Assembly: GCA_016235545.1 (NCBI GenBank)
Contig: JACRKB010000073.1
Span: 25,015 to 89,014 of the forward strand
From: Verrucomicrobiota bacterium
GTDB taxonomy: Bacteria; Verrucomicrobiota; Verrucomicrobiia; Limisphaerales; SXTU01
Length of the DNA: 64,000 nucleotides
Direction of reading: 5' to 3'
In this document: positions 3,759 through 52,937 of the stretch, in pieces
How positions within the stretch are numbered: the stretch's first letter is position 1
Layout of the letters: every line of letters starts with the position of its first letter
The notes under the pieces: model-generated
Database searches by the model: none
What the model was told of the DNA's origin: nothing
The model's input: only the letters and a program-made list of their open reading frames with translations
Position numbers and translations under genes: made by a program

Positions 3759-3761
3759 ACC

Positions 3762-20033: not shown

Positions 20034-20053
20034 ACGGCGCGGGCGCCGCTCCC

Positions 20054-21112: not shown

Positions 21113-21118
21113 TACGGG

Positions 21119-21134
21119 CTCGAACGTGTTCGAG
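21119..21134. promoter_or_regulatory. Candidate LacI operator CTCGAA-CGTG-TTCGAG (autoregulatory position)
   Basis: Same 16-mer as 18442-18457 in the opposite orientation. It lies 7 nt upstream of the LacI start codon and ~100 nt upstream of the divergent GPH transporter gene. Confidence 0.55.
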
Positions 21135-21234
21135 CGCGAGTCAATTGTTTCCCCGGCTCGGGCCGCCGACACTCGCTTCCCCGCGTTCATCCCCGCCCGG
21201 CCGCTTCCGCGATCACCCGCCACTCCCGACCTCC

Positions 21235-22623: not shown

Positions 22624-22778
22624 GGCATTCATCCTATTTCATCCTTGAAAACGAAAACAGGCAGCGGGCACACCTGCGCGGATCGAAAGCTCCCGGTCGC
22701 GCGGTCCGGCCTCCGTCAGTTCCACCGCGCACCTTCCGCGGCCCGCCCGCCGGCGGAGCGACCCGGGAATTTCGACCC

Positions 22779-24134: not shown

Positions 24135-24237
24135 ACTCCAACCACCGCCCCTCGAACCCGGCCCCGACGACGCCCGCCTTGCGCCCCGGGAATGGCGGCG
24201 GCCGGTGCCAACGCCACGGGCGCGCAGAGGAGCGGCG

Positions 24238-26064: not shown

Positions 26065-26128
26065 CGCCGCCGCCGCGCGCGATGCAGATTGCCGCGCACG
26101 CGCGGACGCGCATCGTATCCGCTCACCC

Positions 26129-30635: not shown

Positions 30636-30643
30636 GGGAGGGG

Positions 30644-30657
30644 CAACGACGTCGTTG
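30644..30657. promoter_or_regulatory. Perfect 14-bp palindrome CAACGACGTCGTTG in the 5' leader of the large TBDR gene
   Basis: Self-complementary 14-mer located 9 nt upstream of start codon 30635 (minus strand). It could be an operator or an RNA hairpin occluding translation initiation. Confidence 0.3.
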
Positions 30658-30784
30658 TTCCGGAGGCGCTGAGCTGGCAAGGGCATCAGGGGGGGTAGTT
30701 CTACGCATACTCGGAGTCGCCGGGCAAAACCCGCGCTCATCGCACTTGTCTCCCGCAGCGGTCTGTCGAAGATGGCTCCGCATC

Positions 30785-33508: not shown

Positions 33509-33517
33509 GAGAGAGGC

Positions 33518-35752
33518 TTAGGGCGGATCAGGCTGCGCGGCAAGCGAGGCCGCGCGAGCGGCGGCGGCGCGGGCGCCCTCGCGGTCGCCGAGGCGCTGGA
33601 GCACGCTGGCGAGCGCGTGCGGGTAGTCCGCGGTGCGTGGTTCGGCGCGTTCTGCCTGGCGCAGCGCCTCCGCCGCCTCGGCGAGGCGGCCGCGCTTGGC
33701 GAGCAGGAGCCCGAGGTTATACCAGGCGCGGTGCAACGCCGGGGCGCGCTCGACGGCGGCGCGGAGGAGGCGCTCCGCCGCGTCGGGCTGCCCGGCTTCG
33801 GCGTGGGCGAGCGCGGCTTGCAGCGCGAGGGGCGCGTCGTCGGGCGCGAGCGCGACCGCGCGGTCGAGTTGCTCCGCGGCGTCGGCGATATTGCCGTCGG
33901 CGGCGAGCACGAGGCCGAGGGATTGGCGGATGCCCGGGGAAAACGGATCCCACTCCGTGGCGCGGCGCAGCTCGGCGGCGGCCTCGGCGAGGCGGCCGCG
34001 GTTGGCCCAATCCTGCGCGCGGCGCACGCGGCCGGCGGGCTGGTCGAGCGTGAGCGCGAGGTAGTCGTCCAGCTCGCGCCGCGCGGGCGAGGCGGCGGGC
34101 AGGGTGGGCGAGAGTGCCCACGCGGCTTCGAGGCGCACGCTGCGGACCGGATCGGTCAGCAGCGGACCGAGCCGCTCGGCCGCGTCGGGCGCGCCGAAGA
34201 AGTAGCGCGCGGCGGCGGCGCGCTCGAGCGGATCAGCGGCGCCGAGCGAAGCGACGGCGATCTCGCGGCCGTGGACGGCGTCGCGCGTGCGCGGCAGCAG
34301 CGTGAGCAGGGTGGCGCGCCAGGCGGGGATGTCCTCGCGCCGCCAGGTGTCGAGGAGGAGCGCGGCGGCGCCGGGCGCATCGCTTTGGGCGGCGGCGACG
34401 GCGCGGGCGCGGAGCCGCTGGCGCTCGCGGACGCGGGAGCCGAACCACTCGTCGGCCTTGGTCACGGTCCAGTCCAGCCCGCGGTCGGCGTGGCAGGAGG
34501 AACAGGCGTTGGGGATGCCGAGTTCGCGGGTGAGGAGCGGATCAGGCGAGAGCCAACCGTGGTCGTGCCGGGGCGCGCGTTGCATGTAGTTTTTCGCCGG
34601 CATGTGGCAGGCGATGCAGGAATTGCCCGCGCTGCCGGGCTGGTGGCGCGAGTGGGCGGATGGATCGATGGGCACGGCGCGCGTGCCGCCGGGGAGCACA
34701 CGGCCGGGCGCGGCATGGCATTGCAGGCAGAGCTGGTTGTCCGCGGCCGGAAGGATCGTGCGCGTGGTGTGCGGATCATGGCAGTCCAGACAGGTGACGC
34801 CCGCATGGCCCATGCGGCTGAGCTGGACCGAGGTCCAATTGAAATCCTCGTCGCGCTGCTGGCCGTCGGGATAGAACGTGGCGGCGTCCACGGGCAGCGT
34901 GAGGCGGAAATGATCGGCGTAGCGGTCCCCGGGCGTGAAATTTTCGGTGAGCGGCTCGTGGCGACCGTGGCAGGTCGCGCAGGTCTCGGCCATGCGCTGG
35001 CGGTCGCCGCGGAATGGCGCGGGCGGCGTGGAGGGTCGCGAAGCGTGCGGGTCGCCGTGGGCGGCGGGCATCGCGCCGTGGCACTGGATGCAGCCGACGC
35101 CGTGCTCGATCCAGGTGGAGGCGTAGCGGTCGGCCGCCGGGTCGTAGTTTTTCCGGTAGCCGGTCATGTGGCAGGGAGCGCACATGGAATTCCAATTCAT
35201 GCCGCGGCCGGTCCAGTGACCCCACTCGCCGGGGCGGCGGCGCTCTTCGCCGAAAACATTGAACCACTCGCGACGCCCGACATCGTAGGCGAGATCGGTG
35301 GGTTGCCAGCGGCCGCCCGGGGCCGCGACGAGCGGCTGCCAGAGGGGCTTGGCGCCAAGGATGAACTGCGCAGTGTAAGTGACGGACGGCTCGCCGGCGC
35401 GCAGTTCGGTCAGGCGCGGACCGCTCTCGGTCCAGGCGAGCGCGAAATCGGAGCCGCCCGCGGTGGCGCGAGGATGCGCGGCGAAGGCCTCGCGATCGCG
35501 TGCCGGATCGACGGGGCGGTTGGCGAGAGCGTGATCGGTGCCCGACCAGGCTTGGAAGATCTCGGCGTGACATTCGCGGCAGGACGCGGAGGTCTGGGTC
35601 GCGGCCGCGGGCGGGCCGGAAGCTGATGTGCCGCGCGGGGCGCAAGCCACGGTGCCGAGCAAGAGCAACGCGCCCGGTGCCGCCAGCGCGAGGAGGGCTC
35701 GCAACAGGTGCGCGGTGCGATGTTCGGAGACTGGGACGCGCGGTGCGATCAT
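33518..35752 (-). CDS. Periplasmic octaheme c-type cytochrome fused to a C-terminal TPR domain
   Basis: Signal-like N-terminus. Eight CxxCH motifs: CRECH, CAPCH, CIQCH, CATCH, CLDCH, CLQCH, CIACH, CSSCH. The C-terminal ~300 aa are TPR-like (..AWYNLGLLLAKRGRLAEAAEALRQA..). The stop lies 9 nt before the kinase start. Confidence 0.9.
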   Translation of the reverse strand: MIAPRVPVSEHRTAHLLRALLALAAPGALLLLGTVACAPRGTSASGPPAAATQTSASCRECHAEIFQAWSGTDHALANRPVDPARDREAFAAHPRATAGGSDFALAWTESGPRLTELRAGEPSVTYTAQFILGAKPLWQPLVAAPGGRWQPTDLAYDVGRREWFNVFGEERRRPGEWGHWTGRGMNWNSMCAPCHMTGYRKNYDPAADRYASTWIEHGVGCIQCHGAMPAAHGDPHASRPSTPPAPFRGDRQRMAETCATCHGRHEPLTENFTPGDRYADHFRLTLPVDAATFYPDGQQRDEDFNWTSVQLSRMGHAGVTCLDCHDPHTTRTILPAADNQLCLQCHAAPGRVLPGGTRAVPIDPSAHSRHQPGSAGNSCIACHMPAKNYMQRAPRHDHGWLSPDPLLTRELGIPNACSSCHADRGLDWTVTKADEWFGSRVRERQRLRARAVAAAQSDAPGAAALLLDTWRREDIPAWRATLLTLLPRTRDAVHGREIAVASLGAADPLERAAAARYFFGAPDAAERLGPLLTDPVRSVRLEAAWALSPTLPAASPARRELDDYLALTLDQPAGRVRRAQDWANRGRLAEAAAELRRATEWDPFSPGIRQSLGLVLAADGNIADAAEQLDRAVALAPDDAPLALQAALAHAEAGQPDAAERLLRAAVERAPALHRAWYNLGLLLAKRGRLAEAAEALRQAERAEPRTADYPHALASVLQRLGDREGARAAAARAASLAAQPDPP

Positions 35753-36086
35753 GGGCGGAGCAGCTCACGCGTGCGCGCAATCGCCCGGCCGGGCAATCTT
35801 CTTTCTTGGTCCCTGTGATCCCGGCTCCTGGGCGTCGATGTTGTCGCGGGAAAATTATCGCGTTGGTGGGCACCCGGTTGGCGAGGGGTGGTAAAAATTA
35901 CCTAAATGTCACTAAGGGGTGTCCGATGTTGTGGGAACAGTTTCGGCACGTTTGCGCGCCGGAGCTGCGTTCTCCGACAGCATCAAGGGCCACCCCGAGT
36001 TGCATGGCATCGCCGTGCGACATCGCGCACGCATGGCTCCGGATCTGGCAGGGGAGCACCGTTCACCTCAACTCCCGACACCTCCC

Positions 36087-37286
36087 ATGCGTCCCACCTC
36101 TCGCTTCATCCTCGCCGGCGCGCTCCTGCTCGGCACCACCCTGCTCACCCGCGCCGCGGTCACCGTCGGCAGCACCAACGTCCAGATCGGCGGCTTCTTC
36201 AGCCAAGGCTACCTGAAGAGCAGCAAGAACAACCACCCCTTCGAGGCCAAGGACGGCACCTGGGACTTCCGCGAGATGGCGGTCAACGTCTCCACGACCA
36301 TCGGCACGCACCTGCGCGTGGGCGCGCAGGGCTTCGCGCAGAAGCTCGGCAACTACGGACGGGACGAGGTTCTGCTCGACTGGGCCAATGCCGATTACAA
36401 CTTCCGCCCCGAGTTCGGCGTGCGCGCGGGCCGCATCAAGTATCCGAAGGGTCTCTACGGCGAGGCGCTGGACGTCGATGCCATCCGCCCCTTCATTTTC
36501 CTGCCGAACAACATCTACAGCGTCGTCCGCCGCGATTTCTCGGCCTCCTTCGACGGCGCGATGTTCTACGGCTCGCTGAACGCGAAACAGGCCGGGAGCT
36601 TCGACTACAAGCTCTTCTACGGCGACATCGCCATGAGCCCCAAACAGGGCGTGGCTGACCTGTTCAACAACGCCAACCTCTTCGCGGCCCCGGGCGTCCA
36701 ATCGCTATCGGTCGAGAAGGTCTATGGCGTCGCCATCGATTGGAGCACGCCGTTGTCCGGCCTGAAAATCCACGCGTCCTATTCGAAGCTCGACCAAGCG
36801 GTGGCGACCGGTCGCTTCCTGGCCGTTCCGGCCTTGCCGTTGCGCGCCGAAGTCTCACCCGCCTACACCACGGTGGGTGCGGAATACACCCGCGGCGACT
36901 GGACCCTGGCCGCCGAATACATGCACGAGGACGGCCCCGTGGCCTACCAGACCCAGCCCGCCTCGGTATTTTCCGTCGCCCGCCAATACGGCACCCGCAA
37001 TTACTACGCTTCCGTCGCCCGCCGCTTCGGCGAGAAATGGGAACTCGGCGCCTACTACGCGAAAGCCAAGAACGCCCACCCCGCCGCGACCGATCCCGAG
37101 CCCGCGCGGCACCTCGACGACTGGGCCTTCGCCATCCGCTACAACGTCAACGAGCACGTCATCGTGAAAGCGGAGTTCCACACCATCGACGGGCGCTACA
37201 ACGTGATCAACACCCCCCGCACCCCCAACCCGACGCTCGCCGACTCGATGTCGTTCTGGGCCCTCAAGACGACGTTCGTGTTCTGA
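36087..37286 (+). CDS. Putative outer-membrane beta-barrel porin (uncharacterised family)
   Basis: Signal MRPTSRFILAGALLLGTTLLTRAAV (ATG 36087). The body shows an alternating amphipathic beta-strand pattern rich in Y/G/N/A. The C-terminus WALKTTFVF ends in an aromatic residue, as expected for OMP barrels. Confidence 0.7.
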   Translation: MRPTSRFILAGALLLGTTLLTRAAVTVGSTNVQIGGFFSQGYLKSSKNNHPFEAKDGTWDFREMAVNVSTTIGTHLRVGAQGFAQKLGNYGRDEVLLDWANADYNFRPEFGVRAGRIKYPKGLYGEALDVDAIRPFIFLPNNIYSVVRRDFSASFDGAMFYGSLNAKQAGSFDYKLFYGDIAMSPKQGVADLFNNANLFAAPGVQSLSVEKVYGVAIDWSTPLSGLKIHASYSKLDQAVATGRFLAVPALPLRAEVSPAYTTVGAEYTRGDWTLAAEYMHEDGPVAYQTQPASVFSVARQYGTRNYYASVARRFGEKWELGAYYAKAKNAHPAATDPEPARHLDDWAFAIRYNVNEHVIVKAEFHTIDGRYNVINTPRTPNPTLADSMSFWALKTTFVF

Positions 37287-37754: not shown

Positions 37755-39314
37755 ATGAGCGCCAGCACCACTCTCAGCCTCAAGCGGGCCTTCACCGGCA
37801 TCATCCTCGGCTACGTCTGCCTGACGGCGCTGATCGTGGGCGTCGGCGTGCTCAGCGCGCAATTCTCCCGCACCGGCGCGCGCAAGACCGCCGAGATGAG
37901 CGAGCTCCTGCTGCCGGCCCTCCAGGATCTCGCCGGCCTGCAGGACGCCGCCCTCCGCTACCACCTCGCCAACCTGGAGTTCGTCACCGGCCGCGACGAG
38001 GAGATCCAGAAGCGCAAGCTCGAGGAGGCCGCGCGGCAGCGCCGCGATCTCGAGCGGCACGCCCAGGCGCTCGACGGCCGCCTCCAAGCGCTGAATAGCG
38101 GCATCTCGCGCGCCGCGCTCACCGCGGCGGTCGGCCAATACGACGGGGCCGTCGAGCGGCTCCGCGCCGCCCTCAAGGCCAACGATTTCACCGAGGCCAT
38201 GCGGCTGCTCGACACCGAGGTCGCCGCCGCAAGCGCCGCGGTGGACGCGGCCTTGGCCAAGCTCACCGAACAGGTCTCCTCACAGGCCCTGGTCAACGGC
38301 GGCGAGACCTCCGCCATCCTCGCCCGCAACCTGAAATTCGGTGTCACCCTCAGCATCGCCGTCGGCGCGCTCGGCTTGGCCGGCAGCGGCCTGGTGTTCT
38401 GGCTCAGCCGGCGGATCAGCCGCCCGCTCCAGCAGGCGATGACGCAGATGCACGAATTCACCGAGAGCACCGCCACCGCCTCCGTCCAGATCTCGAATTC
38501 CAGCCAGTTGCTGGCCGACGGCGCCAGCCAGCAGGCCGCCTCGCTGGAGGAAACCAGCGCCTCGCTCGAAGAGATGTCCGGCATGACCCGCCGCAACGCC
38601 GAGGCCGCCGAGAACGCCAAGCAGATCGCCGGCGCCACCCGCACCGCCGTCGAGGCCGGATCGGCCGGCATGCAGCGCATGAACACCGCGATGGAGGGCA
38701 TCAAATCCTCCAGCGACGAGATCGCGAAGATCATCAAGACCATCGACGAGATCGCCTTCCAGACCAACATCCTGGCTCTCAACGCCGCCGTCGAGGCGGC
38801 ACGCGCGGGCGAGGCCGGCGCCGGCTTCGCCGTCGTCGCCGAGGAGGTCCGCGCCCTCGCCCAGCGCTCCGCCACGGCCGCGAAGGAGACGGCCGAGAAA
38901 ATCGAAGCCGCTCTCGCCAAGAGCGCCGAGGGCACGCGCACCAGCGCCGAAGTCTCCGGCATGCTGACGCAGATCGTCGAGCAGGTTCGCCGCATGGACA
39001 CGCTCGTGGCCGAGATCGCCACCGCCTCGCGCGAGCAATCCGAGGGCATCACCCAGGTCAACAAGGCCGTGTCCGCGATGGACAACGTTACGCAGTCCAA
39101 CGCCTCCACCGCCGAGGAGAGCGCCGCCGCCGCCGAGCAGCTCTCGGCCCAGTCGCGCGAGCTCAAGGGCGTCGTCGAGCAGTTGCGCGGGCTCATCGGC
39201 GGCGGAGCCGCCGCGCAGCCGCGCGAGGCTGACGTCTCCCCCGCCGTGGTCGCACCTGCGGCGCGCGCTCCCAGACGGCCAGTCGCCCACGCGCCGGGTG
39301 CGGCGCACGCTTGA
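37755..39314 (+). CDS. Methyl-accepting chemotaxis protein
   Basis: N-terminal TM, a helical sensor region, a second TM plus HAMP. The highly conserved signalling hairpin reads IDEIAFQTNILALNAAVEAARAGEAGAGFAVVAEEVRALAQRS. Methylation-site-like EE/QQ heptads are present. Confidence 0.92.
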   Translation: MSASTTLSLKRAFTGIILGYVCLTALIVGVGVLSAQFSRTGARKTAEMSELLLPALQDLAGLQDAALRYHLANLEFVTGRDEEIQKRKLEEAARQRRDLERHAQALDGRLQALNSGISRAALTAAVGQYDGAVERLRAALKANDFTEAMRLLDTEVAAASAAVDAALAKLTEQVSSQALVNGGETSAILARNLKFGVTLSIAVGALGLAGSGLVFWLSRRISRPLQQAMTQMHEFTESTATASVQISNSSQLLADGASQQAASLEETSASLEEMSGMTRRNAEAAENAKQIAGATRTAVEAGSAGMQRMNTAMEGIKSSSDEIAKIIKTIDEIAFQTNILALNAAVEAARAGEAGAGFAVVAEEVRALAQRSATAAKETAEKIEAALAKSAEGTRTSAEVSGMLTQIVEQVRRMDTLVAEIATASREQSEGITQVNKAVSAMDNVTQSNASTAEESAAAAEQLSAQSRELKGVVEQLRGLIGGGAAAQPREADVSPAVVAPAARAPRRPVAHAPGAAHA

Positions 39315-39826: not shown

Positions 39827-41938
39827 TCAGGCGGCGGGCGGGGCGATCTCGGCCAGCGCGGCGGCGAAATCGCAGGGGTGAAAGGGCTTCAAGAGCACGC
39901 GGGGCGGTGGGCCGGGGATAGCGCTGAGCGCGTCGGGCCGGTCGGCGAGTAGATTGGAGTAGCCGGTCATCAGGATCGCGGGAACGCCCGGATTGAGCGT
40001 CCTGATCTCGTGGAGCAGGGCGAGCCCCGAGATGCCTCCGGGCATGACCATGTCCGTGATCACGAGGTCGTAGGCGCCAGGAGACTGCCGCCAAAGTTCG
40101 AGGGCGGCGCGGCCGTTGGGGGCAACGTCGCTGGGGATGCGCTCGTTGGCCAAGACTTTGGGGAGCAACTCGCGCACGATCTCGTCGTCCTCGGCGACTA
40201 GGGCGCGACCGAAGCGGCCGGCTCCGCGCTGGGCCACCGGCGCGCCGGGCGCGCCGGGCGCGGCGGGAGGCTCTACGGTCGGGGCGGCGGGGGCGACGGG
40301 ATGGTAGAGCGTGAAGGTCGTGCCCGCGCCGGGCTGGGTTTTCACAGTGACCCAGCCGCCCTGCTGATGGACGATCGCGTAAACGGTGGACAGGCCGAGG
40401 CCCGTGCCTTTGCCGGGCTCCTTGGTGGTGAAGAAAGGTTCGAAGACGTGGGGGAGCGTCTCGGGCGCTATGCCGGTGCCGGTATCGGCGACGGAAATCT
40501 CGATGAAGTCGCCGGGGCGGGCGTCGATCTGGCGGCGGGCGGCTTCGGCGTCCACCGTGAGCGGGCGGGCGGCGATTTCAATGCATCCTCCACGGGGCAT
40601 GGCGTCGCGGGCGTTGACGACGAGGTTGACGACGACTTGTTCGAAGCTCGCGATATCGGCCACCACGCGGGGCAGGTTGGCGGGGATGTTCCAGCGGATC
40701 TCGATGTCGGCGCCGATCAACCGGCGCAGGAGCGGCCGGAGTTCGGCGAAGACCTCGTTCAGGTCCGCGAGTTCGGGCTGCAAGATCTGCTTGCGGGCGA
40801 AGACGAGCAACTGGCGGGTGAGGGCGGCGGCCCGCGTGGCGGCGGTCTGGATGGGCACGGCCATGCGCCGCACCTCCTCCTCCCGGGCGAGGTGCCGGAT
40901 CTCTCCGGCATAGCCTTGGATCGCCGTGAGTATGTTGTTGAAGTCATGGGCGATGCCGGCGGAGAGCTGGCCGATGGCGTCGAGCTTCTGCGATTGGCGG
41001 AGCTGCTGCTCGAGCTCGAGCTGCTGCGTGACGTCGCGCAGGAGCCAGATGGAGCAGAGCCGGCCGTTGAGCTGGATGCGGCGGCCGACGCAGCGGATGT
41101 GCCGCTCGGGCTCACCCGGCAGACGGAAAACGAAGGGATAGTCGTCGATCTCCTCGCCGGTGACGACCCGCTCGAGCAGGGCGCGCCAGCGCTCGGGATC
41201 GACGCCGCGACCGAAATTGTCGGTCGTGGTGCGGGCGAGCTCCGCCGGCGTCGTGTGGAAGAGGCTTTCGAAGGCGCGGTTGACCGCGAGGATGGCGAAG
41301 CCGGGCTCATGGGCGAGGATGGCCTGCGCGATCGGGCTGGCGTTGAAGGCGGCGGTGAAACGGGCCTCGGATTGGACGAGCTCGTCGGTGCGGTGGCGGA
41401 CGGCGCGATCGAGCTCGTCGAGCCGGGCGCGGTGGGCGCTGGCCAGTTCCCACTTCGTGGTCAGGGAATGGGCGAGCTGCAGCACCTCCACGTGATCGAA
41501 GGGTTTCTTGAGGATGAGGAGGTTGGACGACTGCCCGAGGCGCTCGCGGATGGTGGACCAAGTGTGGTCGGAATAGGCCGTGCAGATGACAATCTGCAGC
41601 TCGGGGTCGGCAGCCCAGAGGTGGCCGATGGTTTCGAGGCCGTCCCAGCCCGGGGGCATGCGCATGTCGACGAAGGCAAGGGCGTAGGGCCGCCCCGCCG
41701 CGAGGGCGCGCTGGACGAGTTCGAGGGCCTCGGCCCCCTGATAGGCGGCGTCGAGATCGTATCTCGGAGGGGAGGGAGCGGGGGCAGGTTCGGTGTCGCC
41801 GAACACGGCGGTGGCAAGCGCGTCGCGCGCCGCGGCGTCGGCGGGTGGCAGGGCGAGGATCTTGGCGAAATCCAGGTGGATGGACGCCGTGTCGTCGACG
41901 ATCAGGATGCGGTGGAGAGCGGGTGCAGGGGTATTCAT
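39827..41938 (-). CDS. Hybrid sensor histidine kinase / response regulator (REC-PAS-HisKA-HATPase-REC)
   Basis: Start [16 protein letters not shown] (ATG 41938, ATGA overlap with the upstream stop). N-terminal receiver ([12 protein letters not shown]), a PAS-like region, H-box [13 protein letters not shown], HATPase (NARDAM, DTGTGI, GTGLGLS), and a C-terminal receiver (ALVAEDDE..., [15 protein letters not shown]). Confidence 0.9.
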
Positions 41939-43629
41939 GGTGCAGCCGGTGGGGTGAAGACGAGGGGCAGCTCGAGTGTGAAGGTGGCCCCGAGCCCGCG
42001 TCCGTCGCTCGCGGCGCGGAGCGTGCCGCCGAGGTTGGCGGCGGCGAGGGCGCCGGAGTGCAGGCCGAAGCCGTGGCCATCCTTCCGCGTGGTGTAACCG
42101 TGCTGGAAGAGCCGGGCGATGTCCTCGGGGGCGATGCCGACGCCGTTGTCGCAGACGGCGAGGCGCACGCGTCCGGCGGCGACGGTGAGCCGCAAGGTGA
42201 CGCGCCGGTCCGGAGCGGGGCGGGTTTTGACGGCGTCGATGGCGTTCTGGACGAGGTTGACGACGATCTGAAGGGCGAGATGGCGGTCGGTGCTGAGCAG
42301 GGGGCGTTCCGGGGGATAGTCCTGCTCGATGACAACCTGATGCCGCTGGAGGGAGGCGCGGGCGATGCGCTGCGCGTCGGCGAAAAGCTCCGCGGGGTCG
42401 AAGGTCTGGGTGAGGCCGCCGGCCTTGGTGTAGTCCTGCTGGACGGCGACAATCTGCCGGATGTGGTCGATGTTGGTGGACAGGGACGAGAGTTCGCGGG
42501 TGAGATCGGCGCGGCATTGCTGGAGCCCGGCTCCGATTTCGACGATCAACCCGGGCACATGGCGCCCGCGGGGATCCTCGGCGATAAAGCGCGGGGCCTC
42601 GGCGCCGCGCTCGCGCAGGAGGGCGGCGGTGCGGTCGAGGAGCCCGAGGTGCGGGTTGGCGGCGAGCTCGTCGCGGACGATGTTGGCGGAGACGTTGACG
42701 GAGTTGAGGACGTTGCCGACGTTGTGGAGGATGCCGGTGGCGACCTGGGCCATGCCGGCGAGGCGCGAGGCCTCGAAGAGGCGGCGCTGGGTCTCGGCGA
42801 GGTCGCGGTGGGCGCGTTCGGCGGCGTCCTTCTGCTCGCGAAGCTCGCGGGTGCGGGCCTCGACGCGTTCCTCCAACCTGAGATTGGCTTCCTGCAGGTT
42901 GCGGTCGCGGGTTTGGATGGCTTCGGTCATCCCATTGACGGAGCGGGCGAGCTGGCCGAGTTCGTCCTGCCGGTCATTCTCGGCGCGGGCGGCCAGGTCG
43001 CCGCGCGCCACCCGGCCGACCACCGCCTGGAGCTTCAGGAGCGGGCTGAAAAGCAGGCGGGCATTCAGGTAGGCGGCGCCGAAAGCGAGCGCCATCGCGC
43101 CGGCGGCGAAAGCGAGCGTGTGCCGCAACAGGCGGCGGAGGCCCTCGTCGTGGGCGTGGAGGGACAATCCCACATGGATGCGCCCCCAGGGAATGCCGCC
43201 GTATTCCAAGGGCCGGGAGTAACGGTAGGCGCGCCCCGGCAGGGGCGGGAACTCGCCGATCTCGCCGTGCGGCTCCGGCGCGCCCGAGCGCCAGGAGCGG
43301 TCGAGCTTTTCGGTGTGCCAACCCTGCCGGTCGTGCACGAGGGTGAAGCCGTCGCTGCGCGCAAGCACGATGAAATCGATCTCCGCGTCGCCACGGATGA
43401 CCGTGGTGCACTGGTCCACGACGGCGGTATAGTCCTCAGTCACCAGCGCGGTGGCCGAGAGTTCCTGAAGAAACAGTGTGATGCTGTTGGCCTTGGAGGC
43501 GAGCGCGTCGAGCGCATCCTGCCGCTGCTGGGGAAAAAGCGCTGCGGCGTAGAGCCCGACCATGACCAGCGCGATGCCCCAGATCTGCAGGGTGGCGCGC
43601 CAAACCAGGCAAGCGCTCGGGGGCTTCAT
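41935..43629 (-). CDS. Membrane sensor histidine kinase (periplasmic sensor domain - HAMP - coiled coil - kinase core)
   Basis: Start MKPPSACLVW (ATG 43629, ATGA overlap). Two TM segments flank a ~150-aa periplasmic region. HAMP (LKLQAVVGRVARGDLAARAE), H-box GILHNVGNVLNS, and HATPase (VQNAIDA, DNGVGI, GFGLH). Confidence 0.88.
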   Translation of the reverse strand: MKPPSACLVWRATLQIWGIALVMVGLYAAALFPQQRQDALDALASKANSITLFLQELSATALVTEDYTAVVDQCTTVIRGDAEIDFIVLARSDGFTLVHDRQGWHTEKLDRSWRSGAPEPHGEIGEFPPLPGRAYRYSRPLEYGGIPWGRIHVGLSLHAHDEGLRRLLRHTLAFAAGAMALAFGAAYLNARLLFSPLLKLQAVVGRVARGDLAARAENDRQDELGQLARSVNGMTEAIQTRDRNLQEANLRLEERVEARTRELREQKDAAERAHRDLAETQRRLFEASRLAGMAQVATGILHNVGNVLNSVNVSANIVRDELAANPHLGLLDRTAALLRERGAEAPRFIAEDPRGRHVPGLIVEIGAGLQQCRADLTRELSSLSTNIDHIRQIVAVQQDYTKAGGLTQTFDPAELFADAQRIARASLQRHQVVIEQDYPPERPLLSTDRHLALQIVVNLVQNAIDAVKTRPAPDRRVTLRLTVAAGRVRLAVCDNGVGIAPEDIARLFQHGYTTRKDGHGFGLHSGALAAANLGGTLRAASDGRGLGATFTLELPLVFTPPAAP

Positions 43630-44570
43630 GGTTGGTCGCGGAGAAAAGCGCTGGGGTCGACGATGGCCGGCGGCAGCTGGCGGAGCAACTGGCGGCAGGT
43701 TTCGAGCGCTTCGGCCGGGCAGTTGTCGAGCCGGTTGAATCCGAAGAGGAGGAAGGTCTGCCGTCCGGAGGGCGTGGTGTGGACCGTCCGGAGCATCGCG
43801 AACATGCGCTGGTGGAACGCGGAACCGGGCGGCAGGGCGAGCCATACCACCGAGGCGACCAAGCGGGGGGATTGGGCGACGATGCGGACGGAGGCGGCGA
43901 GCTGGGGGTTCATCTCGCAGGCGGTCTCGTAGGTGGCGCGGGTGACGAGGCAGAGATCCGCTTGGCGGAAATAGACGGGGAGCAGGGCTTTCGCGGGTTT
44001 GGCGGCGGGCTGGGCCGAGGCGAAGAAATCGGCCATGAGCGGGAGGCCGGCGTGATGGAGCTCGGTTTCCAGCCAAAGGCGGCCGAGCTGGGCGGTGGCG
44101 CGGGACTGGCGGAGGAGGATTTTGCCGCGGAAATCGGCGAGCGTGCGGCCGGGTGAGTCGCGGTGGCAGACCAGCAGGTATTCGTCGCCGGGCGTGTCGC
44201 GCCGCACGGGCGTCATGAGTGTGCCCGGGGGCGGCGGAGCGCGCATCGTCAGGTAATCGACGCTGGTCATCGAGATCATGTCGATCTCGCCGGCGACGGC
44301 GGCGGCGAGCGCGTCGTCGTGGTCGCGATACATGCGCGAATCGGGGCGGAGCGCGACGCCGAATTCGCGGCCGATGACCTGCGCCCAGGTGTTGAACGCC
44401 GCCTTGGTGTCCTGCTCGGTGACCCCGCCGAAGACATGGGTGAGGAACCCGATGCGGTAAACCTCCTCGGCCGCGCCCAGGGTGGCGCAGCCAAAGGCGA
44501 GGCCCAGGGCGGCGAGCAGGACGCGCGCCGCGCGGAGGGGGGATGGGGCGGGATTTGGGGTGGCGGGCAC
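43626..44570 (-). CDS. Periplasmic solute-binding protein, PhnD/phosphonate-binding-like fold
   Basis: Signal/lipoprotein-like N-terminus (LLAALGLAFGCATLGA). Contains YRIGFL..., GEIDMISMTSVDYL and ...LVCHRDSPGRTLADFRGK. The type-2 PBP pattern is recalled from PhnD-like proteins that pair with kinases. The family call is moderately confident. Confidence 0.75.
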   Translation of the reverse strand: MPATPNPAPSPLRAARVLLAALGLAFGCATLGAAEEVYRIGFLTHVFGGVTEQDTKAAFNTWAQVIGREFGVALRPDSRMYRDHDDALAAAVAGEIDMISMTSVDYLTMRAPPPPGTLMTPVRRDTPGDEYLLVCHRDSPGRTLADFRGKILLRQSRATAQLGRLWLETELHHAGLPLMADFFASAQPAAKPAKALLPVYFRQADLCLVTRATYETACEMNPQLAASVRIVAQSPRLVASVVWLALPPGSAFHQRMFAMLRTVHTTPSGRQTFLLFGFNRLDNCPAEALETCRQLLRQLPPAIVDPSAFLRDQP

Positions 44571-44573
44571 GGA

Positions 44574-46103
44574 TCAGGGTGGCGGGGTGGGCTCGGTGGC
44601 CAGCGCGTGCCCGACCTCGCGGCCGACGAGGAGCGCGAGCCGGGCTTGGAGCGCCGCGTGGTCGTAGCGGGTCTTGAGGTGTTGCGCGGCCATGAGCGCC
44701 TCCATGAGCTGGGCGCGGACGACCTTCTCGGTGTCCACGAGCTGGTCGAAGTAGGCGCGGGTGTTGAGGTCGCGGTCCTCCTCGGCGGCGCGGCGCGCGG
44801 CGAGGCTGGCGTCGTGCGCGCGTTCGGCGGCGGCGAGTTCGAGGACGATCTGCCGGAGCTGCAGGCCGAGCCCCTCGCGGAGCAGGATTTTTTTCTCCTG
44901 GAGCGCGGCCAGCCGCGCGCGGGCCTCGCTGATGCGCTCCCGGGTGAGGTGGCCGTCGAAGAGTGGCAGGCGGAGGCCGAGACCGACGGTCCAGCCGCGT
45001 TTGTTGCGGTCGGAGACGAAGCCCCCATCGTAACCGTTCTCGATGCGGTGCAGGCTGCCGGTCAGCGCGAGTTGCGGGGCCTGTCCGCTGCGGGCCTCGC
45101 GCACGGCGCCCTCGGCGGCGAGCAGCCCGGCGGCGAGGGCGCGCCAGTCGGGATTGAACTCATAGGCCTGCCCGGCGAGGGCGGCGAGATCGCCGTGGAA
45201 AGGGGCAAAGGGGATGTCGCGCTCCGCGGGCGAGACCGATTCCTGCCACGGCAGGCCCATGACGTTGGCGAGCGCGGCCTGGGCCAGCGCCTCGTTCTTC
45301 GCGAGCGTGGCGGTCATCGCGCGGAGACTCTCGACCATCACTTGGTTCGAGAGATAGTCGCTTTTGGTGACCGTGCCGCTCCCGGTCCGGTAGACGGATT
45401 CGGTGAGCTTGAGCGTGGCTTCCATGCGCTCGAGGGTCTCGCTCCCGAGGCGATGGAGCTGCCGCGCAAGGACGGCGCCGTAGTAGAAGCGGGTGACGGA
45501 TTCGACGATCTCGAGGTCGGTGCGGCGCGCCTGTTCCTGGGCGGCGAGGACGCCGCCGCGCGCCTGGGCGCGGAGTCCGGCGCGCAGTCCGCCGTCGAAG
45601 AGCAGCCACGAGAGGTCGAGGGTCCCGGCGATGGTCTCGCGGTCGGCGAGCTGGATATCCTGAACGGGCACGGTGAATTGCTGGGGGGCGCTCGAGATGG
45701 TTTGCGCGGGGGTCTGGACGGGAAGCTGCACCGCCGCGGGGCCGAGCACGCCGGCGGGCACCGTGATGAGGGCGACGCCGGGGGGCACGGACACATCTTG
45801 CGGCGGGATGGTCCAGGAGGAGGTGGGAAACACGAAATTGCGATACTGGTCGAGCAGCTCGTAGCCGGCCTTGAGGCTCAATTGGGGCCAGTAACCCGCG
45901 AGCGCCTGGCGCAATTGCGCTTCGGCGGCGGCGAGGGCGAACCGGGAGGCCGGGCGCTGGCGGTTGCGCTCCCACGCCGTGGACAGGCATTGCTCGAGCG
46001 AGCACTCCGGGAGCGGTTCGGTGCGAGTCTCCGATTGTCCCGACAAGGGCGGGAGCAGGAGCGCCGCGATGCCAAAAACACCCCAGGCACGGCGGAAGCG
46101 CAT
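44574..46103 (-). CDS. TolC-family outer-membrane efflux protein
   Basis: Signal MRFRRAWGVFGIAALLLPPLSG (start 46103 preferred; 46133/46142 are also possible). Two OEP repeats with typical LSLEQCLSTAWERN...A..A..AQLRQA.AGYWPQLSL and a later helical repeat. The stop lies 3 nt before the PBP start. Confidence 0.8.
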   Translation of the reverse strand: MRFRRAWGVFGIAALLLPPLSGQSETRTEPLPECSLEQCLSTAWERNRQRPASRFALAAAEAQLRQALAGYWPQLSLKAGYELLDQYRNFVFPTSSWTIPPQDVSVPPGVALITVPAGVLGPAAVQLPVQTPAQTISSAPQQFTVPVQDIQLADRETIAGTLDLSWLLFDGGLRAGLRAQARGGVLAAQEQARRTDLEIVESVTRFYYGAVLARQLHRLGSETLERMEATLKLTESVYRTGSGTVTKSDYLSNQVMVESLRAMTATLAKNEALAQAALANVMGLPWQESVSPAERDIPFAPFHGDLAALAGQAYEFNPDWRALAAGLLAAEGAVREARSGQAPQLALTGSLHRIENGYDGGFVSDRNKRGWTVGLGLRLPLFDGHLTRERISEARARLAALQEKKILLREGLGLQLRQIVLELAAAERAHDASLAARRAAEEDRDLNTRAYFDQLVDTEKVVRAQLMEALMAAQHLKTRYDHAALQARLALLVGREVGHALATEPTPPP

Positions 46104-46329
46104 TCCGACCGGGAGGCGGAGCGGGGCGTGCATTGTAACCATAATTTAACCTGTTTTATCGGCAGAAGCACGGTCTACTTGACTTGCATCGAATAAGTTC
46201 CCCGAGAGGACGGGGCCGAACGGCCGGGGTGGCGTGGCAGATGGAATCCACCCCGGATTCCGACAATGAATTTGCGCCGCAAGAGCGTGGGAGGGGCTTT
46301 ATGCCAATCGCCTGTTGCATTTGCATCAT

Positions 46330-46405
46330 TGTCATCGCGAGGTGCGCGAAGCGCGCCGTGGCGATCCAGCTGGATTGCTTCGTCGCTGCGCTCCTCGCAA
46401 TGACA
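46330..46405 (+). repeat. REP/MITE-like palindromic element, copy 2 (shorter variant)
   Basis: TGTCATCGCGAG-GTGCGCGAAGCGCGCC-GTGGCGATCCAGCTGGATTGCTTCGTCGCTGCGCTCCTCGCAATGACA. It has the same termini and core as copy 1 and the same orientation. Confidence 0.7.
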
Positions 46406-46427
46406 GGGTAAAAGCAACGGGCGACTG

Positions 46428-46484
46428 GCTTTACGCCCCGACTTTCCCGGTGCATGCATCGCGTTCCCTGTCGGGGCGTAAAGC
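46428..46484. repeat. 15-bp perfect inverted repeat (GCTTTACGCCCCGAC / GTCGGGGCGTAAAGC) with a 27-nt loop
   Basis: Read directly from the sequence. The arm motif GGAGGGGCTTTAYGCC recurs at 46290-46305 (direct) and 46475-46490 (inverted), flanking the REP copy. Confidence 0.6.
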
Positions 46485-46624
46485 CCCTCCTACATGGCGG
46501 CCAATCGCGGAATCCGGGGCTACCGGAGCGGGTGGCACGCCAGTGAGTTTCCGGTTGCATGACCGCGGGAGAGGCGGCGGTATCGCACCGCACCCGCTGT
46601 TGCGCGGTGCGCTGCACTCGGCCC

Positions 46625-48391
46625 ATGACTCCCCTCGACCTCCTGTTCTCGCTCGCGCCCCTCGGGGCGATGCTCGCGGCGGGATTCATTTTTTCCCGGC
46701 GGGGGGGGCGTTCGGTGCAGGATTTCGTGCTGGGCGATCGGAAATTTTCGTGGTGGCAGGCGGGGACGGCAATGGTGGCGGGGGCGTCGAACGCGGACAG
46801 TCCGCTGCACCACTCGGGCAAAATCCGCCGCGACGGGCTGACGGGCGCGTGGTATTACTGGTCGCAGATTGTCGGGCAGTTGTTCGGCGCGCTGGTGTTT
46901 TCGCGGCTGTGGCGGCGGTCGGGACTGACGACCGTCGTCGAGTTCTACGAGTTGCGCTACGCGGGGCGGGGCGCCGCTGCCGGGCGGGGCTGCGCGATGG
47001 TGCTGGGCACGTTTGTGGAAAGCACATTCGGGATCGCGCTCGGGCTGGTGGCGGTGGTGAAGCTGTCGGAGGTATTTCTCGGGCTCCATCAGCCGGTGAG
47101 TTTGTGGGGAGTCGATTTCGCCCCGGGCCTGCTGGTCGCGCTCGCCGCGCTGGCGCTGGCGGCTTCGTATTCGGTGGTGGCGGGGTTGTTTGGCGTGGTG
47201 GCGGGCGACGTGACGGAGTTTCTGATCACGCTGGCGTGCTCGTATGCGCTGATGTTCTTTGTTTACCGCGCGACGGGCTACCACGCGGGGCTGAGCGAGG
47301 GGCTGGAACGGCTGGGGTTGGCGGCGCAGCGGGAGCTGGCACCGGCGTGGGGATTGTCGGCGCTGGTGTTCTTCGTGTTCCAGCCGCTGGCGACGGCGGC
47401 GGGGGTGAACAGTATCAACCAGCGTTTCCTCGCGGTGCGCGACGAGCGGCAGAGCGCGCTGGCCGGCGTGTGGCGGATCGTGAACCACTACTTCGTGCGC
47501 TGCTGGCCTTGGCATCTGTGCGGGCTGTGCTCGCTGGTGCTGCTCGCCGGCTCCGCGCCGGAGCATGAACTGGCGTATGCGGAGCTGATTCTGCGTTATG
47601 TGCCGGAGGGGTTGCGGGGCTTTATGTTCGGCAGCCTCGTCATGGCGTTCATGGGCACGGCGAGCACGGCCATGCACACGAGCGGAGCGGTATTCGTGAA
47701 CGATTTCTACCGTCCCTACTTCCGCCCGGCGGCGCCGGATCGACATTATCTGTGGATCATCCGCGGGACGATGGTGGTGTTCGCCGCGGCCGGGGTTGCC
47801 GTGGCGATGGCAAACGACCACATTCTCAGCCTCGTGCAGCTTTACTACAAGGTCGTGAGCGCGGCGGGTCTGCTGATGCTGTTGCGGTGGTTCTGGTGGC
47901 GCGTGAACGGCTGGGCGGAGGCGGCGGCGCAACTGGCGGCGCTGCCGGTCGCGCTGCTGTTCGAGCAGGGGGATCGCATTTTCGGGGAGGGGCGCGACCC
48001 GGTGGACTGGCTGGCGGCGCGTTTCGGCGGCGGCACGGCGGACGATCACTTCGCGGTGTCTTTCATTTTGACCATCGCCGCGACGACCGTCATCTGGCTG
48101 GTGGTCATGCTGCTCACCCCGCCCGAACCGATGGAGAAGTTGGAGACGTTCTACCGGCGTATCCGGCCCTACGGTTTCTGGGGCCCGGTGGCGGCGCGAT
48201 GCCCAGAGGTGCGGGTGACGGACCGGTTCGCGCGCGATCTGCTGCTCTACGTGCTGGGCCTCACGGTCTGCGCGTGCGTGCTGCTCGGCGGCGTGGCGCT
48301 CACCTGGGGGAACGTTGCGCTGGGCGCGGGGCTGCTGGCGGCGGGCGGTTGCGGTGGCTGGTTGCTGGTGCGGCGGCTTCAACGGACCTAG
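46625..48391 (+). CDS. Sodium:solute symporter (SSS) family transporter
   Basis: Start MTPLDLLFSLAPLGAMLAAGFIF (ATG 46625). About 13-14 TM helices, with an SSS-like N-terminal block (SVQDFVLGDRKFSWWQAGTAMVA) and ...VVEFYELRY. Confidence 0.85.
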   Translation: MTPLDLLFSLAPLGAMLAAGFIFSRRGGRSVQDFVLGDRKFSWWQAGTAMVAGASNADSPLHHSGKIRRDGLTGAWYYWSQIVGQLFGALVFSRLWRRSGLTTVVEFYELRYAGRGAAAGRGCAMVLGTFVESTFGIALGLVAVVKLSEVFLGLHQPVSLWGVDFAPGLLVALAALALAASYSVVAGLFGVVAGDVTEFLITLACSYALMFFVYRATGYHAGLSEGLERLGLAAQRELAPAWGLSALVFFVFQPLATAAGVNSINQRFLAVRDERQSALAGVWRIVNHYFVRCWPWHLCGLCSLVLLAGSAPEHELAYAELILRYVPEGLRGFMFGSLVMAFMGTASTAMHTSGAVFVNDFYRPYFRPAAPDRHYLWIIRGTMVVFAAAGVAVAMANDHILSLVQLYYKVVSAAGLLMLLRWFWWRVNGWAEAAAQLAALPVALLFEQGDRIFGEGRDPVDWLAARFGGGTADDHFAVSFILTIAATTVIWLVVMLLTPPEPMEKLETFYRRIRPYGFWGPVAARCPEVRVTDRFARDLLLYVLGLTVCACVLLGGVALTWGNVALGAGLLAAGGCGGWLLVRRLQRT

Positions 48392-50655: not shown

Positions 50656-50774
50656 TTACTTTTTCGGGATAAGTCACGAGGGGGTTGGATTCGCGCGTCG
50701 GCCGCGCAATACGTCCTGTACCGCTCTACCCCCACGCTGGCGGCCAAGCGGCAACCCTATCACCCAAACCCCGC

Positions 50775-52937
50775 ATGAAGATGAGACACATTCGATGCAT
50801 GTATCCGTTGCTGGCCGCGCTTTGCGCCGCTCGCATCGCCATGGCGCAGGATGTCCCAAGCGCCGCCGATAAACCCACGCAAGAGACCCAGGACGCAAAC
50901 GACAAGGTCGTCGAGCTTTCGCCCTTCGTAGTCCAAGCATCTGCCACCAACAGCTACATGGCGACGAATTCCGCGTCCGGCACGCGCATCGCGCTGCCGC
51001 TCGAGTCCACTCCGCTGACGATCAGCGTCGTCACAGCCGACCTGCTCAAGGACAAGGGCACGCCTTCGGTGAACGAGGCTCTGCGCTTCATGCCCGGCGT
51101 GCGCCGCAACGCGAACAACTCTGATCAGTTCAAGATCCGCGGCTTCCAGGCGCGGGCTCCGCGCGTGGACGATTTCTACGATGCCGGCGACCTGAATGAG
51201 GGCCGTTCCCGCTATGAGATGGCCGAGATGGAACGCGTTGAGCTGATTAAGGGACCGACCTCGGTGCTCTTCGGCTTCGGCAATCCCGGCGGCGTGCTGA
51301 ACATGATCACGAAGCGGCCTCAGTCGAAGGAGGCCTATTCGGTGACCGCCACCCTCGGTAGCTGGGACCAGAAGCGCATCGCACTCGATGCCACGGGGCC
51401 GATCGCCAAGAAGGGCGATTGGGAACTCCTCTATCGCCTGATCACCGTCAAGGAAAGCGCTGAAGGCTTTCGTGATTTTGAGGACTCCAAGAGCGAATTC
51501 GTGAGCGGCCAGCTCCAGCTGAACTATCGCAACACAACGAGCCTCCGCGTGCGTTTCCGCTATCACGACATTTGGGAGCATGAGGCGTTCACGCTCATGC
51601 CCTACGACATCGCGGACGGCACCATCATCATTCCCGAAATCAGCTACAACGTGAGCGGGCCGCTCGGCGACTTCGCCCATCTGAAGCAGCTGTCCACGAA
51701 CTACGAGTTCACCCACAGCTTCTCCTCGCACCTGCACTTCCGCGCCGCCGCCACCGATCACGAGTTCTATTTCAACTCGCTGCGCCGCATCGGCGAAGCC
51801 CTGATCCCCGACCACACGGGCGTCAACGTCGTAGGGGCGATGGACGACAACAAGCGGCAGATCAAGGCCTGGCAAATGGACCTCACCGGCAACTGGGATT
51901 TCTCCGCCGCCAAGCTCAAGCTCGTGGCTGGCGCCAACGGCACCCACTCGCTCTCCCGCATCGAAGGCAAGAACAACACGAATCTGCCGGTGTTCACGCT
52001 CAACCAGGCGACGCGCAACTACACGCTCGGCAACCCGGCCGACTACATTCCCGGAGCGAACGATTTCCGCGATAACAATATGGATCGCGTCTACTACGCG
52101 CTCACGACCGTCCAAGCATTCAATGACCGCCTGACCCTGCTCGCGGCGGTCGGTCGAGGTGAAAGCGATACCAACAATACGCTCATCCGCAAGACGCCTC
52201 CCACAGTGACCGTCGGGCATTTCAAGGTCACCAAGCCGCAATTCGGCGCCTCTTATGAACTAAGGAAGGGCCTGTTCATGTTCGCGAACATGTCGGAATC
52301 CGCCGCGCCGAACGTGCGCTTCCCGGCGACCCCCGAGGAAGGCAAGAGCTACGACATCGGCTTCAAGTTCAATCAGGACAAGTTCGCCGGTAGCGTCGCC
52401 TACTTCCATACCACGCGCTCTAACATTCAGGTCCAGATCTTCAACACCACCACCGGTCTGACGAGCTTCGAACTCTCCGGCGAGGAGATGGCCGAAGGCG
52501 TCGAATCCGACTTCCAATACTTCCCCACCAAGCAGCTCCAGATTGTCGGCACCTATGCCTGGACAAACTCGCGCGTCGTGTCCGATGCGCAGCGCCCCGG
52601 CCGCGTCGGCACCACGCTGCCCGACGTGCCCCGCAACGCCGTGCGCCTGTGGAGCAAATACACGTTCAATGGCGGTGCCTTGGACAAGGTTTGGGTCGGC
52701 GCCGGCTATCTCTACACGAGCCAAATGATCGGCAACCGCAACCCCGTGCGCTATAAGGTCCACGTCGATGGCTGGCAGCGTTTCGACGCCAGCCTCGGTT
52801 ATACGACGAAAATGGGTAAGGCGCGCGTCGATTACGTCCTCAACGCGGAGAATCTCCTCGATAAGGACTACATCGATTACATGTTCGTGCGCGGCCGGCC
52901 GTTCAATCTGAAGGCCTCCGCGACGTTCTCGTTCTAG
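50775..52937 (+). CDS. TonB-dependent outer-membrane receptor (paralog of 56667-58862)
   Basis: Signal [25 protein letters not shown]. Plug motifs ([52 protein letters not shown]). C-terminal ...LKASATFSF. Confidence 0.9.

Follow-up and report, generated by a model that had tools for sequence, protein, structure and literature searches.

A TolC-fold outer-membrane factor encoded with a PhnD-like binding protein and histidine kinases: a candidate envelope-spanning sensory module conserved across bacterial phyla

A stretch of 64,000 nucleotides from contig JACRKB010000073.1, hereafter called the window, belongs to a verrucomicrobial metagenome-assembled genome (MAG) of about 70% G+C and carries a minus-strand operon of four genes. 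They encode an outer-membrane factor of the TolC family (OMF, the TolC-fold gene product), a PhnD-like solute-binding protein (SBP), a HAMP histidine kinase and a hybrid histidine kinase. An OMF gene joined to SBP and sensor-kinase genes, and not to those of an efflux pump, was found likewise in about 170 related loci distributed over at least four bacterial phyla. We propose, with a probability of about 0.5, that the four genes constitute one self-contained envelope-spanning sensory module in which the OMF is a dedicated partner of the sensor rather than an exit duct for some tripartite pump encoded locally. The best-supported reading of the system is that of an SBP-dependent sensor of the AioX/AioS type that feeds a phosphorelay, uses enzymes of cyclic di-GMP (c-di-GMP) metabolism as output in some lineages and in which the OMF would take part as a dedicated TolC-fold partner. 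The parts are of known kinds and their combination appears to be undescribed: full-text literature searches turned up no report in which a TolC-family gene is coupled to PhnD-like SBPs and kinases.

Gene content and layout of the operon

The interval 39827-46142 of the window is filled by four open reading frames (ORFs), given here from the OMF to the hybrid kinase:

44574-46142, minus strand: OMF gene, 522 residues, alternative start at 46103
43626-44570, minus strand: SBP gene, 314 residues, GTG start
41935-43629, minus strand: HAMP kinase gene, 564 residues
39827-41938, minus strand: hybrid kinase gene, 703 residues

The corresponding NCBI product names are TolC family protein, PhnD/SsuA/transferrin family substrate-binding protein, HAMP domain-containing protein and response regulator. 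The junctions, read directly from the sequence, are tight. The TGA codon of the OMF gene (44576-44574) is followed by 'tcc' and by the GTG codon of the SBP gene at 44570, leaving a gap of 3 nt; the SBP and HAMP kinase genes share an ATGA overlap (ccATGAag at 43629-43626), as do the two kinase genes (ccATGAat at 41938-41935). This succession of one gap and two overlaps had been reported in an earlier prediction made from the nucleotide sequence (hereafter the original prediction) and is exactly as described there. The same prediction had identified the products as a TolC-family protein, a PhnD-like binding protein, a HAMP kinase with the H-box ILHNVGNVLNS and a REC-PAS-HisKA-HATPase-REC hybrid kinase, and the Pfam matches and the position of the H-box at residues 300-310 agree with all four identities. 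As to the limits that it gave to the cluster, the start at 39827 stands and the end at 46103 has to be moved, this position being the internal Met14 of the longest OMF ORF, which extends to 46142. A start at 46103 yields the more canonical signal peptide.

Conserved synteny of outer-membrane factor, binding protein and kinase

The original prediction had singled out a TolC homologue linked to a binding-protein-dependent phosphorelay and had designated conserved synteny as a test of this association. The outcome is strongly positive, and the linkage proves to be real and not accidental. A genome scan, restricted to one genome per species, gathered 80 loci with OMFs 50-60% identical, the neighbours of which were identified by local BLAST and by hidden Markov models (HMMs). 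These loci belong to Verrucomicrobiota, to Acidobacteriota (Bryobacterales, Solibacter, Paludibaculum fermentans), to Desulfobacterota (Syntrophobacteraceae, Desulfosarcina, Desulfosudis, Smithella, Desulfonatronum) and to one MAG labelled Pseudomonadota. The SBP gene directly adjoins the OMF gene in 74 of the 79 usable loci and lies within the cluster in 2 more, while the sensor kinase, recognized by homology over its N-terminal 250 residues, is encoded at most 8 kb downstream in 58 of the 60 loci with enough sequence. The next gene usually encodes a protein with the same atypical N-terminal receiver as the hybrid kinase of the window.

The metagenome scan, also of 80 loci, used as seed an alignment of four distant OMFs with a short loop. 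The OMFs of this distant clade are 33-65% identical to the seed protein; the identity between seed and window OMF is about 37%. An adjoining SBP gene was present in approximately 58 of 60 usable loci, once three mis-scored overlapping upstream SBPs and one partial match at a contig end had been corrected, and the sensor kinase was found in 31 of 31. The association extends further to the Arcobacteraceae, whose OMFs are only about 24-30% identical to that of the window and adjoin the same SBP family and the same sensor domain, their kinases matching the sensor-domain HMM at E-values of 1e-37 to 1e-48. In this family (loci L168-L172 of our numbering) the genes occupy one conserved chromosomal slot (TGT ... 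TrkA_C) with contents that differ by genome: OMF-SBP-kinase, OMF-kinase with a neighbouring REC protein (L171), two SBP-kinase sets and a REC-PAS-GGDEF protein around a single OMF (L172) or, in two Poseidonibacter species, a solitary OMF.

The packing of the genes is a recurrent trait, since among 140 OMF-to-SBP junctions a 4-nt overlap is possible in 42 and a gap of 0-30 nt separates the genes in 65. A few loci depart from the common plan. OMF-kinase pairs devoid of any SBP occur in L171, L012 and L075, the last of which associates the OMF with a PAS hybrid kinase, and in L069, also without SBP, an HTH-REC regulator adjoins the OMF. One MAG (JAZDPP01) carries two modules (L014 and L017), each with its own OMF and with differing SBP and kinase complements; the two OMFs are 79-91% identical over two aligned segments, and the one in L014 is broken into two ORFs, perhaps by a frameshift or through an assembly error. 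No match to the OMF or to the sensor region of the kinase was obtained by tblastn against 72,556 plasmids; it appears that environmental taxa carry the module on the chromosome.

The outer-membrane factor

The OMF matches the Pfam family OEP (PF02321) in two stretches (E-value 5.2e-39; 134 bits against a cut-off of 22) and carries a Sec-type signal peptide without a lipobox. The AlphaFold2 model, computed as a monomer from 25 homologues (pLDDT 77.6), contains two pairs of barrel strands and two helices of 68-69 residues (186-253 and 397-465), each accompanied by a partner helix of 35-36 residues. Foldseek matched this model to TolC, OprM, ST50, OprJ, OprN and CusC, with E-values down to 3e-17, TM-scores of 0.62-0.82 and sequence identities of 15-21%; the predicted structure has the TolC fold. 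At the sequence level the protein is remote from OMFs of solved structure (profile E-value of about 1e-7), and it scores far below the cut-offs of the NCBIfam models for TolC (TIGR01844, 86.8 bits against 225.15) and NodT (TIGR01845, 55.5 bits against 210.05). No curated NCBIfam model covers either this OMF subfamily or the SBP. The possibility that the OMF is a NodT-type lipoprotein was considered and rejected, as a lipobox is lacking and the conserved Cys52 sits in the context T-L-D/E-E/Q-C.

The first two barrel strands are separated by a long insertion, located by alignment:

45639-45854, minus strand: Pro/Val/Gln-rich insertion of about 72 residues, OMF residues 97-168

In the AlphaFold2 secondary structure this segment is predicted as a run of short beta-strands. 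Its conservation (0.71) compares with 0.65 for the flanking barrel strands, and the highest values are reached at the two helical tips (0.81 and 0.89). The long insertion is limited to a close clade; distant clades that display the same synteny have loops of about 25 residues, or loops that are unrelated or shorter. The OMF is unusually conserved: its close relatives, 52-62% identical across phyla, number in the hundreds, in Opitutia, Limisphaerales, Syntrophobacteraceae and other groups, and the clade grades down to about 25-30% identity, with 172 representatives at E-values of 1e-30 or lower in a search of 1.84 billion representatives.

The solute-binding protein

The SBP is a secreted PhnD/ArrX-like protein that belongs to the Pfam family Phosphonate-bd (PF12974, E-value 1.8e-18) and is encoded in the window operon without any ABC permease or ATPase. 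Compared with solved structures, the profile of the module SBPs finds ArrX as its best match (1.6e-13), followed by 7T1M (MCA1014), a phosphate-binding protein, PtxB, a phosphonate-binding protein, AioX and PhnD. The module SBPs carry ordinary Sec signal peptides, for which reason their assignment as lipoproteins was rejected, and they display a conserved acidic motif, VNENDA, after the first strand. With identities of only 22-34% they are far more divergent than the OMF, and their number varies from 1 to 6 or 7 copies per locus.

As a separate observation, PDB entry 7T1M (MCA1014, an uncharacterised protein from Methylococcus), the second-best structural relative of these proteins (E-value 4.8e-13), shares with them the N-terminal motif VNE.DA. 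This solved structure is apparently unpublished; a literature search for MCA1014 yielded nothing but unrelated catalogue numbers.

The kinases and their outputs

In the HAMP kinase, Pfam recognizes HAMP and HATPase_c and gives no match to HisKA. Its layout comprises a first transmembrane helix, a periplasmic domain with weak resemblance to the single-Cache (sCache) family, a second transmembrane helix, HAMP, a long dimerization and histidine-phosphotransfer helical domain containing His302, and the HATPase domain. The H-box aligns with the phospho-acceptor helix of FixL-type kinases. The periplasmic sensor domain is 35-44% identical across related loci; weak matches to sCache_3_2 were obtained for 23 of 37 orthologous sensor domains, with a best E-value of 2e-7 and a value of 0.05 for the protein of the window. 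The hybrid kinase contains, according to Pfam, two Response_reg domains, PAS, HisKA and HATPase_c. The main features of the two proteins are the following:

43120-43524, minus strand: periplasmic sensor domain of the HAMP kinase, residues ~36-170 (by alignment)
42700-42732, minus strand: H-box ILHNVGNVLNS of the HAMP kinase, residues 300-310, with phospho-accepting His302
41414-41914, minus strand: REC1 of the hybrid kinase, an atypical N-terminal receiver with an insert and Asp91
41021-41365, minus strand: PAS of the hybrid kinase (Pfam)
40787-40972, minus strand: HisKA of the hybrid kinase (Pfam)
40295-40657, minus strand: HATPase of the hybrid kinase (Pfam)
39869-40201, minus strand: REC2 of the hybrid kinase, with Asp629 (Pfam)

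The translations reveal that the catalytic residues are kept in both kinases and in both receivers. The part of the hybrid kinase that is conserved in relatives is REC1, with 44-60% identity. Orthology with CckA was examined and rejected, the best matches to the NCBIfam CckA models amounting to 345 and 316 bits for a cut-off of 1000; the hybrid kinase shares only its type of kinase core with CckA.

The original prediction had emphasized that the operon encodes neither an Hpt protein nor an output domain. This is correct for the operon of the window and its flanks, the window as a whole encoding no Hpt protein or output regulator, and it does not extend to the system in general, since relatives possess REC-GGDEF-EAL proteins, fused Hpt domains or stand-alone Hpt proteins. 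In several loci of Acidobacteriota and Desulfobacterota, the same atypical N-terminal receiver is fused to GGDEF-EAL, and in Syntrophobacteraceae the kinase is a single HAMP-GAF-HisKA-HATPase-REC-Hpt-REC protein. In the distant OMF clade, a stand-alone Hpt gene often lies directly 5' of the OMF gene and on the same strand, forming operons of the type Hpt-OMF-SBP(n)-kinase. The stand-alone Hpt proteins, of 133-163 residues, are encoded at the following positions (locus number and coordinates within the locus):

L097, 7364-7855, OMF strand: stand-alone Hpt protein
L100, 7006-7497, OMF strand: stand-alone Hpt protein
L103, 1915-2322, OMF strand: stand-alone Hpt protein
L119, 7056-7457, OMF strand: stand-alone Hpt protein
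L123, 5386-5796, OMF strand: stand-alone Hpt protein
L140, 2282-2710, OMF strand: stand-alone Hpt protein
L141, 7332-7742, OMF strand: stand-alone Hpt protein

The absence of output is a feature of the lineage of the window and not of the system. An orphan hybrid kinase without a local Hpt protein or response regulator is, in itself, a common occurrence.

Absence of pump partners

The Pfam annotation of the window and the inspection of the flanking genes also bear out the claim that the operon is devoid of adaptor and inner-membrane efflux genes as well as of Hpt and output genes: no Hpt, DNA-binding, HlyD, RND or ABC gene is present in the operon or in the ~10 kb around it. The only exporter of the window, an ABC-2 system at 942-4889, was rejected as a pump partner, being located 40 kb away and not conserved with the module. 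Among 13 related contexts annotated with Pfam, no adaptor or RND gene adjoins the module and the flanks are unrelated and unconserved. The nearest gene 5' of the OMF gene was further determined in 104 loci by codon-usage scoring and scanned against Pfam. Response_reg (10) and Hpt (8) head the families at this position; DnaE domains, a reflection of local gene order in Verrucomicrobia, come next, and neither HlyD, RND, ABC nor MacB appears among the 25 most frequent families listed. The one exception to this lack of pump components is a solitary MacB-like gene, some 4 kb upstream in L086.

A proposed mechanism

The analysis establishes which genes are present, their close junctions, the TolC fold, the family assignments, the three-way conservation of synteny and the lack of pump genes; the contacts between components, the direction of ligand flow, the identity or class of the ligand, the order of phosphotransfer and the function of the OMF are those that we infer for the module. 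The secreted PhnD/ArrX-like SBP would capture a small ligand, probably an oxyanion because of the family to which the SBP belongs, and the loaded SBP would dock on the single-Cache-like periplasmic domain of the HAMP kinase in the way AioX does on AioS. The kinase would then autophosphorylate on His302 and pass the phosphate to Asp91 in REC1 of the next protein. In the window, REC1 is part of a PAS-containing, CckA-like hybrid kinase whose second receiver, through Asp629, would have to signal to an Hpt protein or a response regulator from another part of the genome; in other lineages, REC1 would directly drive a GGDEF-EAL enzyme.

The OMF would most likely serve as an outer-membrane port or docking platform, its ~100-angstrom periplasmic tunnel presenting or delivering the ligand to the SBP and the kinase. 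The original prediction had suggested an entry or exit channel for the sensed ligand, which is one of several roles that the OMF may have. The periplasmic tunnel of TolC is about 100 angstroms long, and a tunnel of this length together with an SBP of ~50 angstroms and a Cache domain of ~40 angstroms would roughly span the periplasm. A generic structural arm provided by the OMF, combined with interchangeable SBPs setting specificity, fits the uniform conservation of the OMF and the divergence and variable number of the SBPs. A bolder version of this proposal, which we consider possible and advance tentatively, holds that a TolC-fold clade was repurposed from export to sensing. Its trimeric tunnel would constitute the outer-membrane arm of a trans-envelope two-component sensor, either piping an external solute onto SBPs docked at its periplasmic mouth or relaying a surface signal, and the kinase would sample the exterior of the cell instead of the bulk periplasm.

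Weighing the alternatives

Several points weigh against a dedicated sensory role of the OMF. The evidence for its partnership with the SBP and the kinase is gene neighbourhood, and the synteny counts run one way, from loci of the OMF clade to SBP and kinase. The protein has, in its model, a complete TolC architecture and could dock on adaptors from other loci. In the absence of an adaptor the periplasmic end of TolC-family tunnels is closed, we know of no physiological role for import through such tunnels, and the small anions bound by PF12974 proteins would normally cross general porins. Moreover, Poseidonibacter parvus and P. lekithochrous keep an intact OMF alone, with neither SBP nor kinase, in the slot orthologous to that of the other Arcobacteraceae, which suggests that the OMF has a use independent of the sensor and can outlive the sensor genes. 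The Arcobacteraceae slot offers, for the same reason, a natural series for asking whether the OMF depends on the sensor.

The main rival explanation makes the OMF a conventional exit duct for unlinked adaptor and pump pairs. Its gene would simply share a transcript with a two-component system responsive to a pump substrate or to envelope stress, and this system would control the pumps in question. This logic is that of CusRS/CusCFBA or BaeSR/TolC, and tolC itself is unlinked from acrAB in Escherichia coli; OMF genes unlinked to pumps are, in general, well known. The full TolC fold with helices of TolC length, the tip motifs that are the most conserved parts of the OMF, the solitary OMF of both Poseidonibacter species and the single OMF shared by the two SBP-kinase sets of L172 all speak for this explanation. 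We find it somewhat doubtful nonetheless. Apart from the MacB-like gene of L086, no recurrent adaptor or pump family emerged from the window, the 13 contexts or the nearest 5' genes of the 104 loci. A shared duct would have no need to accompany an SBP and a kinase through at least four phyla or to be copied along with every module, and yet the OMF clade, the SBP clade and the sensor domain stay associated down to OMF identities of about 24-30%.

An unlikely variant would make the OMF the primary receptor, its ~72-residue insertion, extracellular or lumenal, detecting a surface or extracellular cue and passing a conformational change along the alpha-barrel until it reaches SBP and kinase, in a logic akin to that of TonB-dependent transducers (FecA-FecR-FecI). 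Such a role would account for an insertion as conserved across phyla as the membrane strands, which is atypical of an exposed outer-membrane loop, and for the OMF-kinase pairs that dispense with an SBP. The restriction of the long insertion to the close clade, while distant clades with the same synteny make do with short or unrelated loops, argues in the opposite direction, as do the variation in SBP copy number and the divergence of the SBPs, which designate the latter as specificity determinants; signalling through a TolC barrel has, besides, no known precedent. It is very unlikely that the linkage is devoid of functional meaning, a neutral accident of gene order inherited or transferred as a block. 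OMF identities of 52-62% across phyla are compatible with horizontal transfer of such a block, but order and content are maintained while the number of SBPs, the architecture of the kinase (with or without GAF, HisKA and fused REC-Hpt) and the outputs are reshuffled, most loci show closely packed or overlapping stop and start codons, and the association survives into the most divergent OMFs.

Flanking region and other features of the window

The cluster is bordered on one side by a convergent gene of a methyl-accepting chemotaxis protein (MCP) and on the other by a divergent gene of a sodium:solute symporter (SSF) family member:

37755-39314, plus strand: MCP gene, convergent flank
46143-46558, no strand: divergent intergenic region 5' of the OMF gene, presumed promoter region, holding a 16-nt inverted repeat
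46559-48391, plus strand: SSF symporter gene, divergent flank

In a consensus scan of the region, neither strand yielded a sigma-70-like promoter and the minus strand of the cluster yielded no terminator-like site; such a scan is weak evidence in a verrucomicrobial genome, for which the consensus may be unsuited. Between the OMF and SSF symporter genes, a perfect inverted repeat of 16 nt (46427-46442, GGCTTTACGCCCCGAC, and 46470-46485, GTCGGGGCGTAAAGCC) encloses a 27-nt spacer. It is unique within the window, and two matches were obtained in none of 100 shuffles; possible interpretations are an operator, a REP-like element and an RNA hairpin. ORF 46175-46459, 5' of the OMF gene, was considered as a hidden Hpt gene and rejected, its translation being a repeat-derived sequence of low complexity.

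Further features of the window deserve mention in their own right. A Porin_4-like gene (35919-37286) adjoins the MCP gene, and just past these two, at 31472-35752 on the minus strand, a 744-residue multihaem cytochrome c and TPR protein is encoded with a TPR-HisKA-HATPase kinase 9 nt downstream, an unusual pair. The interval 18396-27418 groups LacI regulators and MFS transporters with a sulfatase, a sulfate permease of the SulP/STAS type and a radical-SAM/SPASM protein that resembles an anaerobic sulfatase-maturating enzyme. Three TonB-dependent receptor genes (16192-18552, 27468-30740 and 50685-52937) are present in the 64 kb.

Implications

The TolC family is regarded as one of exit ducts that serve efflux and type I secretion, and a multi-phylum clade linked to sensors would, if our proposal is true, add a signalling role to this repertoire. 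In its bolder version the proposal would amount to a new class of cell-surface signalling, with interchangeable SBPs setting specificity and with c-di-GMP or phosphorelay outputs. The module would also explain how periplasmic sensors see external solutes in bacteria with tight outer membranes. Modular sensors of this kind, each with 1 to 6 or 7 exchangeable SBPs, would be common in bacteria of wetland, peat, sediment and groundwater. Should the OMF instead be an exit duct for distant pumps, the module would still provide a useful marker for an unrecognized regulon of unlinked efflux pumps. Carriers that can be cultivated, namely Paludibaculum fermentans, Arcobacter spp., Desulfosudis oleivorans and Opitutaceae isolates, make the hypothesis open to direct test.

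Comparison with known systems

The OMF of the window resembles TolC, OprM and CusC in its predicted fold, which combines a long alpha-tunnel with the strands of a 12-strand barrel formed in the trimer, and in its two OEP repeats; the neighbourhood of a two-component system is likewise known from cus and czc (cusRS/cusCFBA). It differs from these proteins by its low identity to them (15-21%), by its 72-residue insert and by its neighbours, in the sampled loci an SBP and a HAMP kinase with a weakly sCache-like sensor domain in place of adaptor and pump genes. The FecA-FecR-FecI system is alike in logic, an outer-membrane protein being coupled genetically and functionally to an inner-membrane transducer in an envelope-spanning sensor. 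Its components are of another nature, a 22-strand TonB-dependent transporter that bears a signalling domain at its N terminus, together with an anti-sigma factor and an extracytoplasmic function (ECF) sigma factor, none of which occurs in the module.

In LuxP-LuxQ and TorT-TorS, a periplasmic SBP modulates a membrane kinase, and a relay of several steps then runs through receiver and Hpt domains. Their SBPs belong to other families, the hybrid kinase itself is the membrane sensor and no OMF is involved, whereas in the module described here a plain membrane kinase would feed a soluble REC-PAS hybrid kinase.

Other known systems have a PhnD-like sensing component. PhnD-like modules are the sensing domains of TtrS and ThsS, where, as proposed here, they serve in sensing and not in transport (PMC5408782). 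In those proteins the PhnD-like domain is fused into the kinase and there is no OMF, while the SBP of the window is a separate secreted protein and the kinase has a putative sCache-like domain of its own. Both AioX and ArrX function as signalling SBPs, each activating a histidine kinase, and the sensor domain of AioS is of the sCache-like kind (PMC5908839, PMC8050422). The AioX-AioS-AioR and ArrX-ArrS-ArrR systems, which sense arsenic oxyanions, share with the module a secreted, non-transporter SBP of the PF12974 family encoded beside a membrane histidine kinase (PMC5908839, PMC8050422); their kinases have an sCache-like periplasmic domain, as that of the module may have. They have a single SBP and no OMF, and they comprise a sigma-54 response regulator with adjacent arsenic oxidase or reductase target genes that have no counterpart in the window; the module has an OMF and 1 to 6 or 7 SBPs, and its partner protein is a REC-PAS hybrid kinase (REC-GGDEF-EAL or Hpt proteins in relatives) without local target genes. 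The module of the window is an analogue of the aio/arr type and not a member of it.

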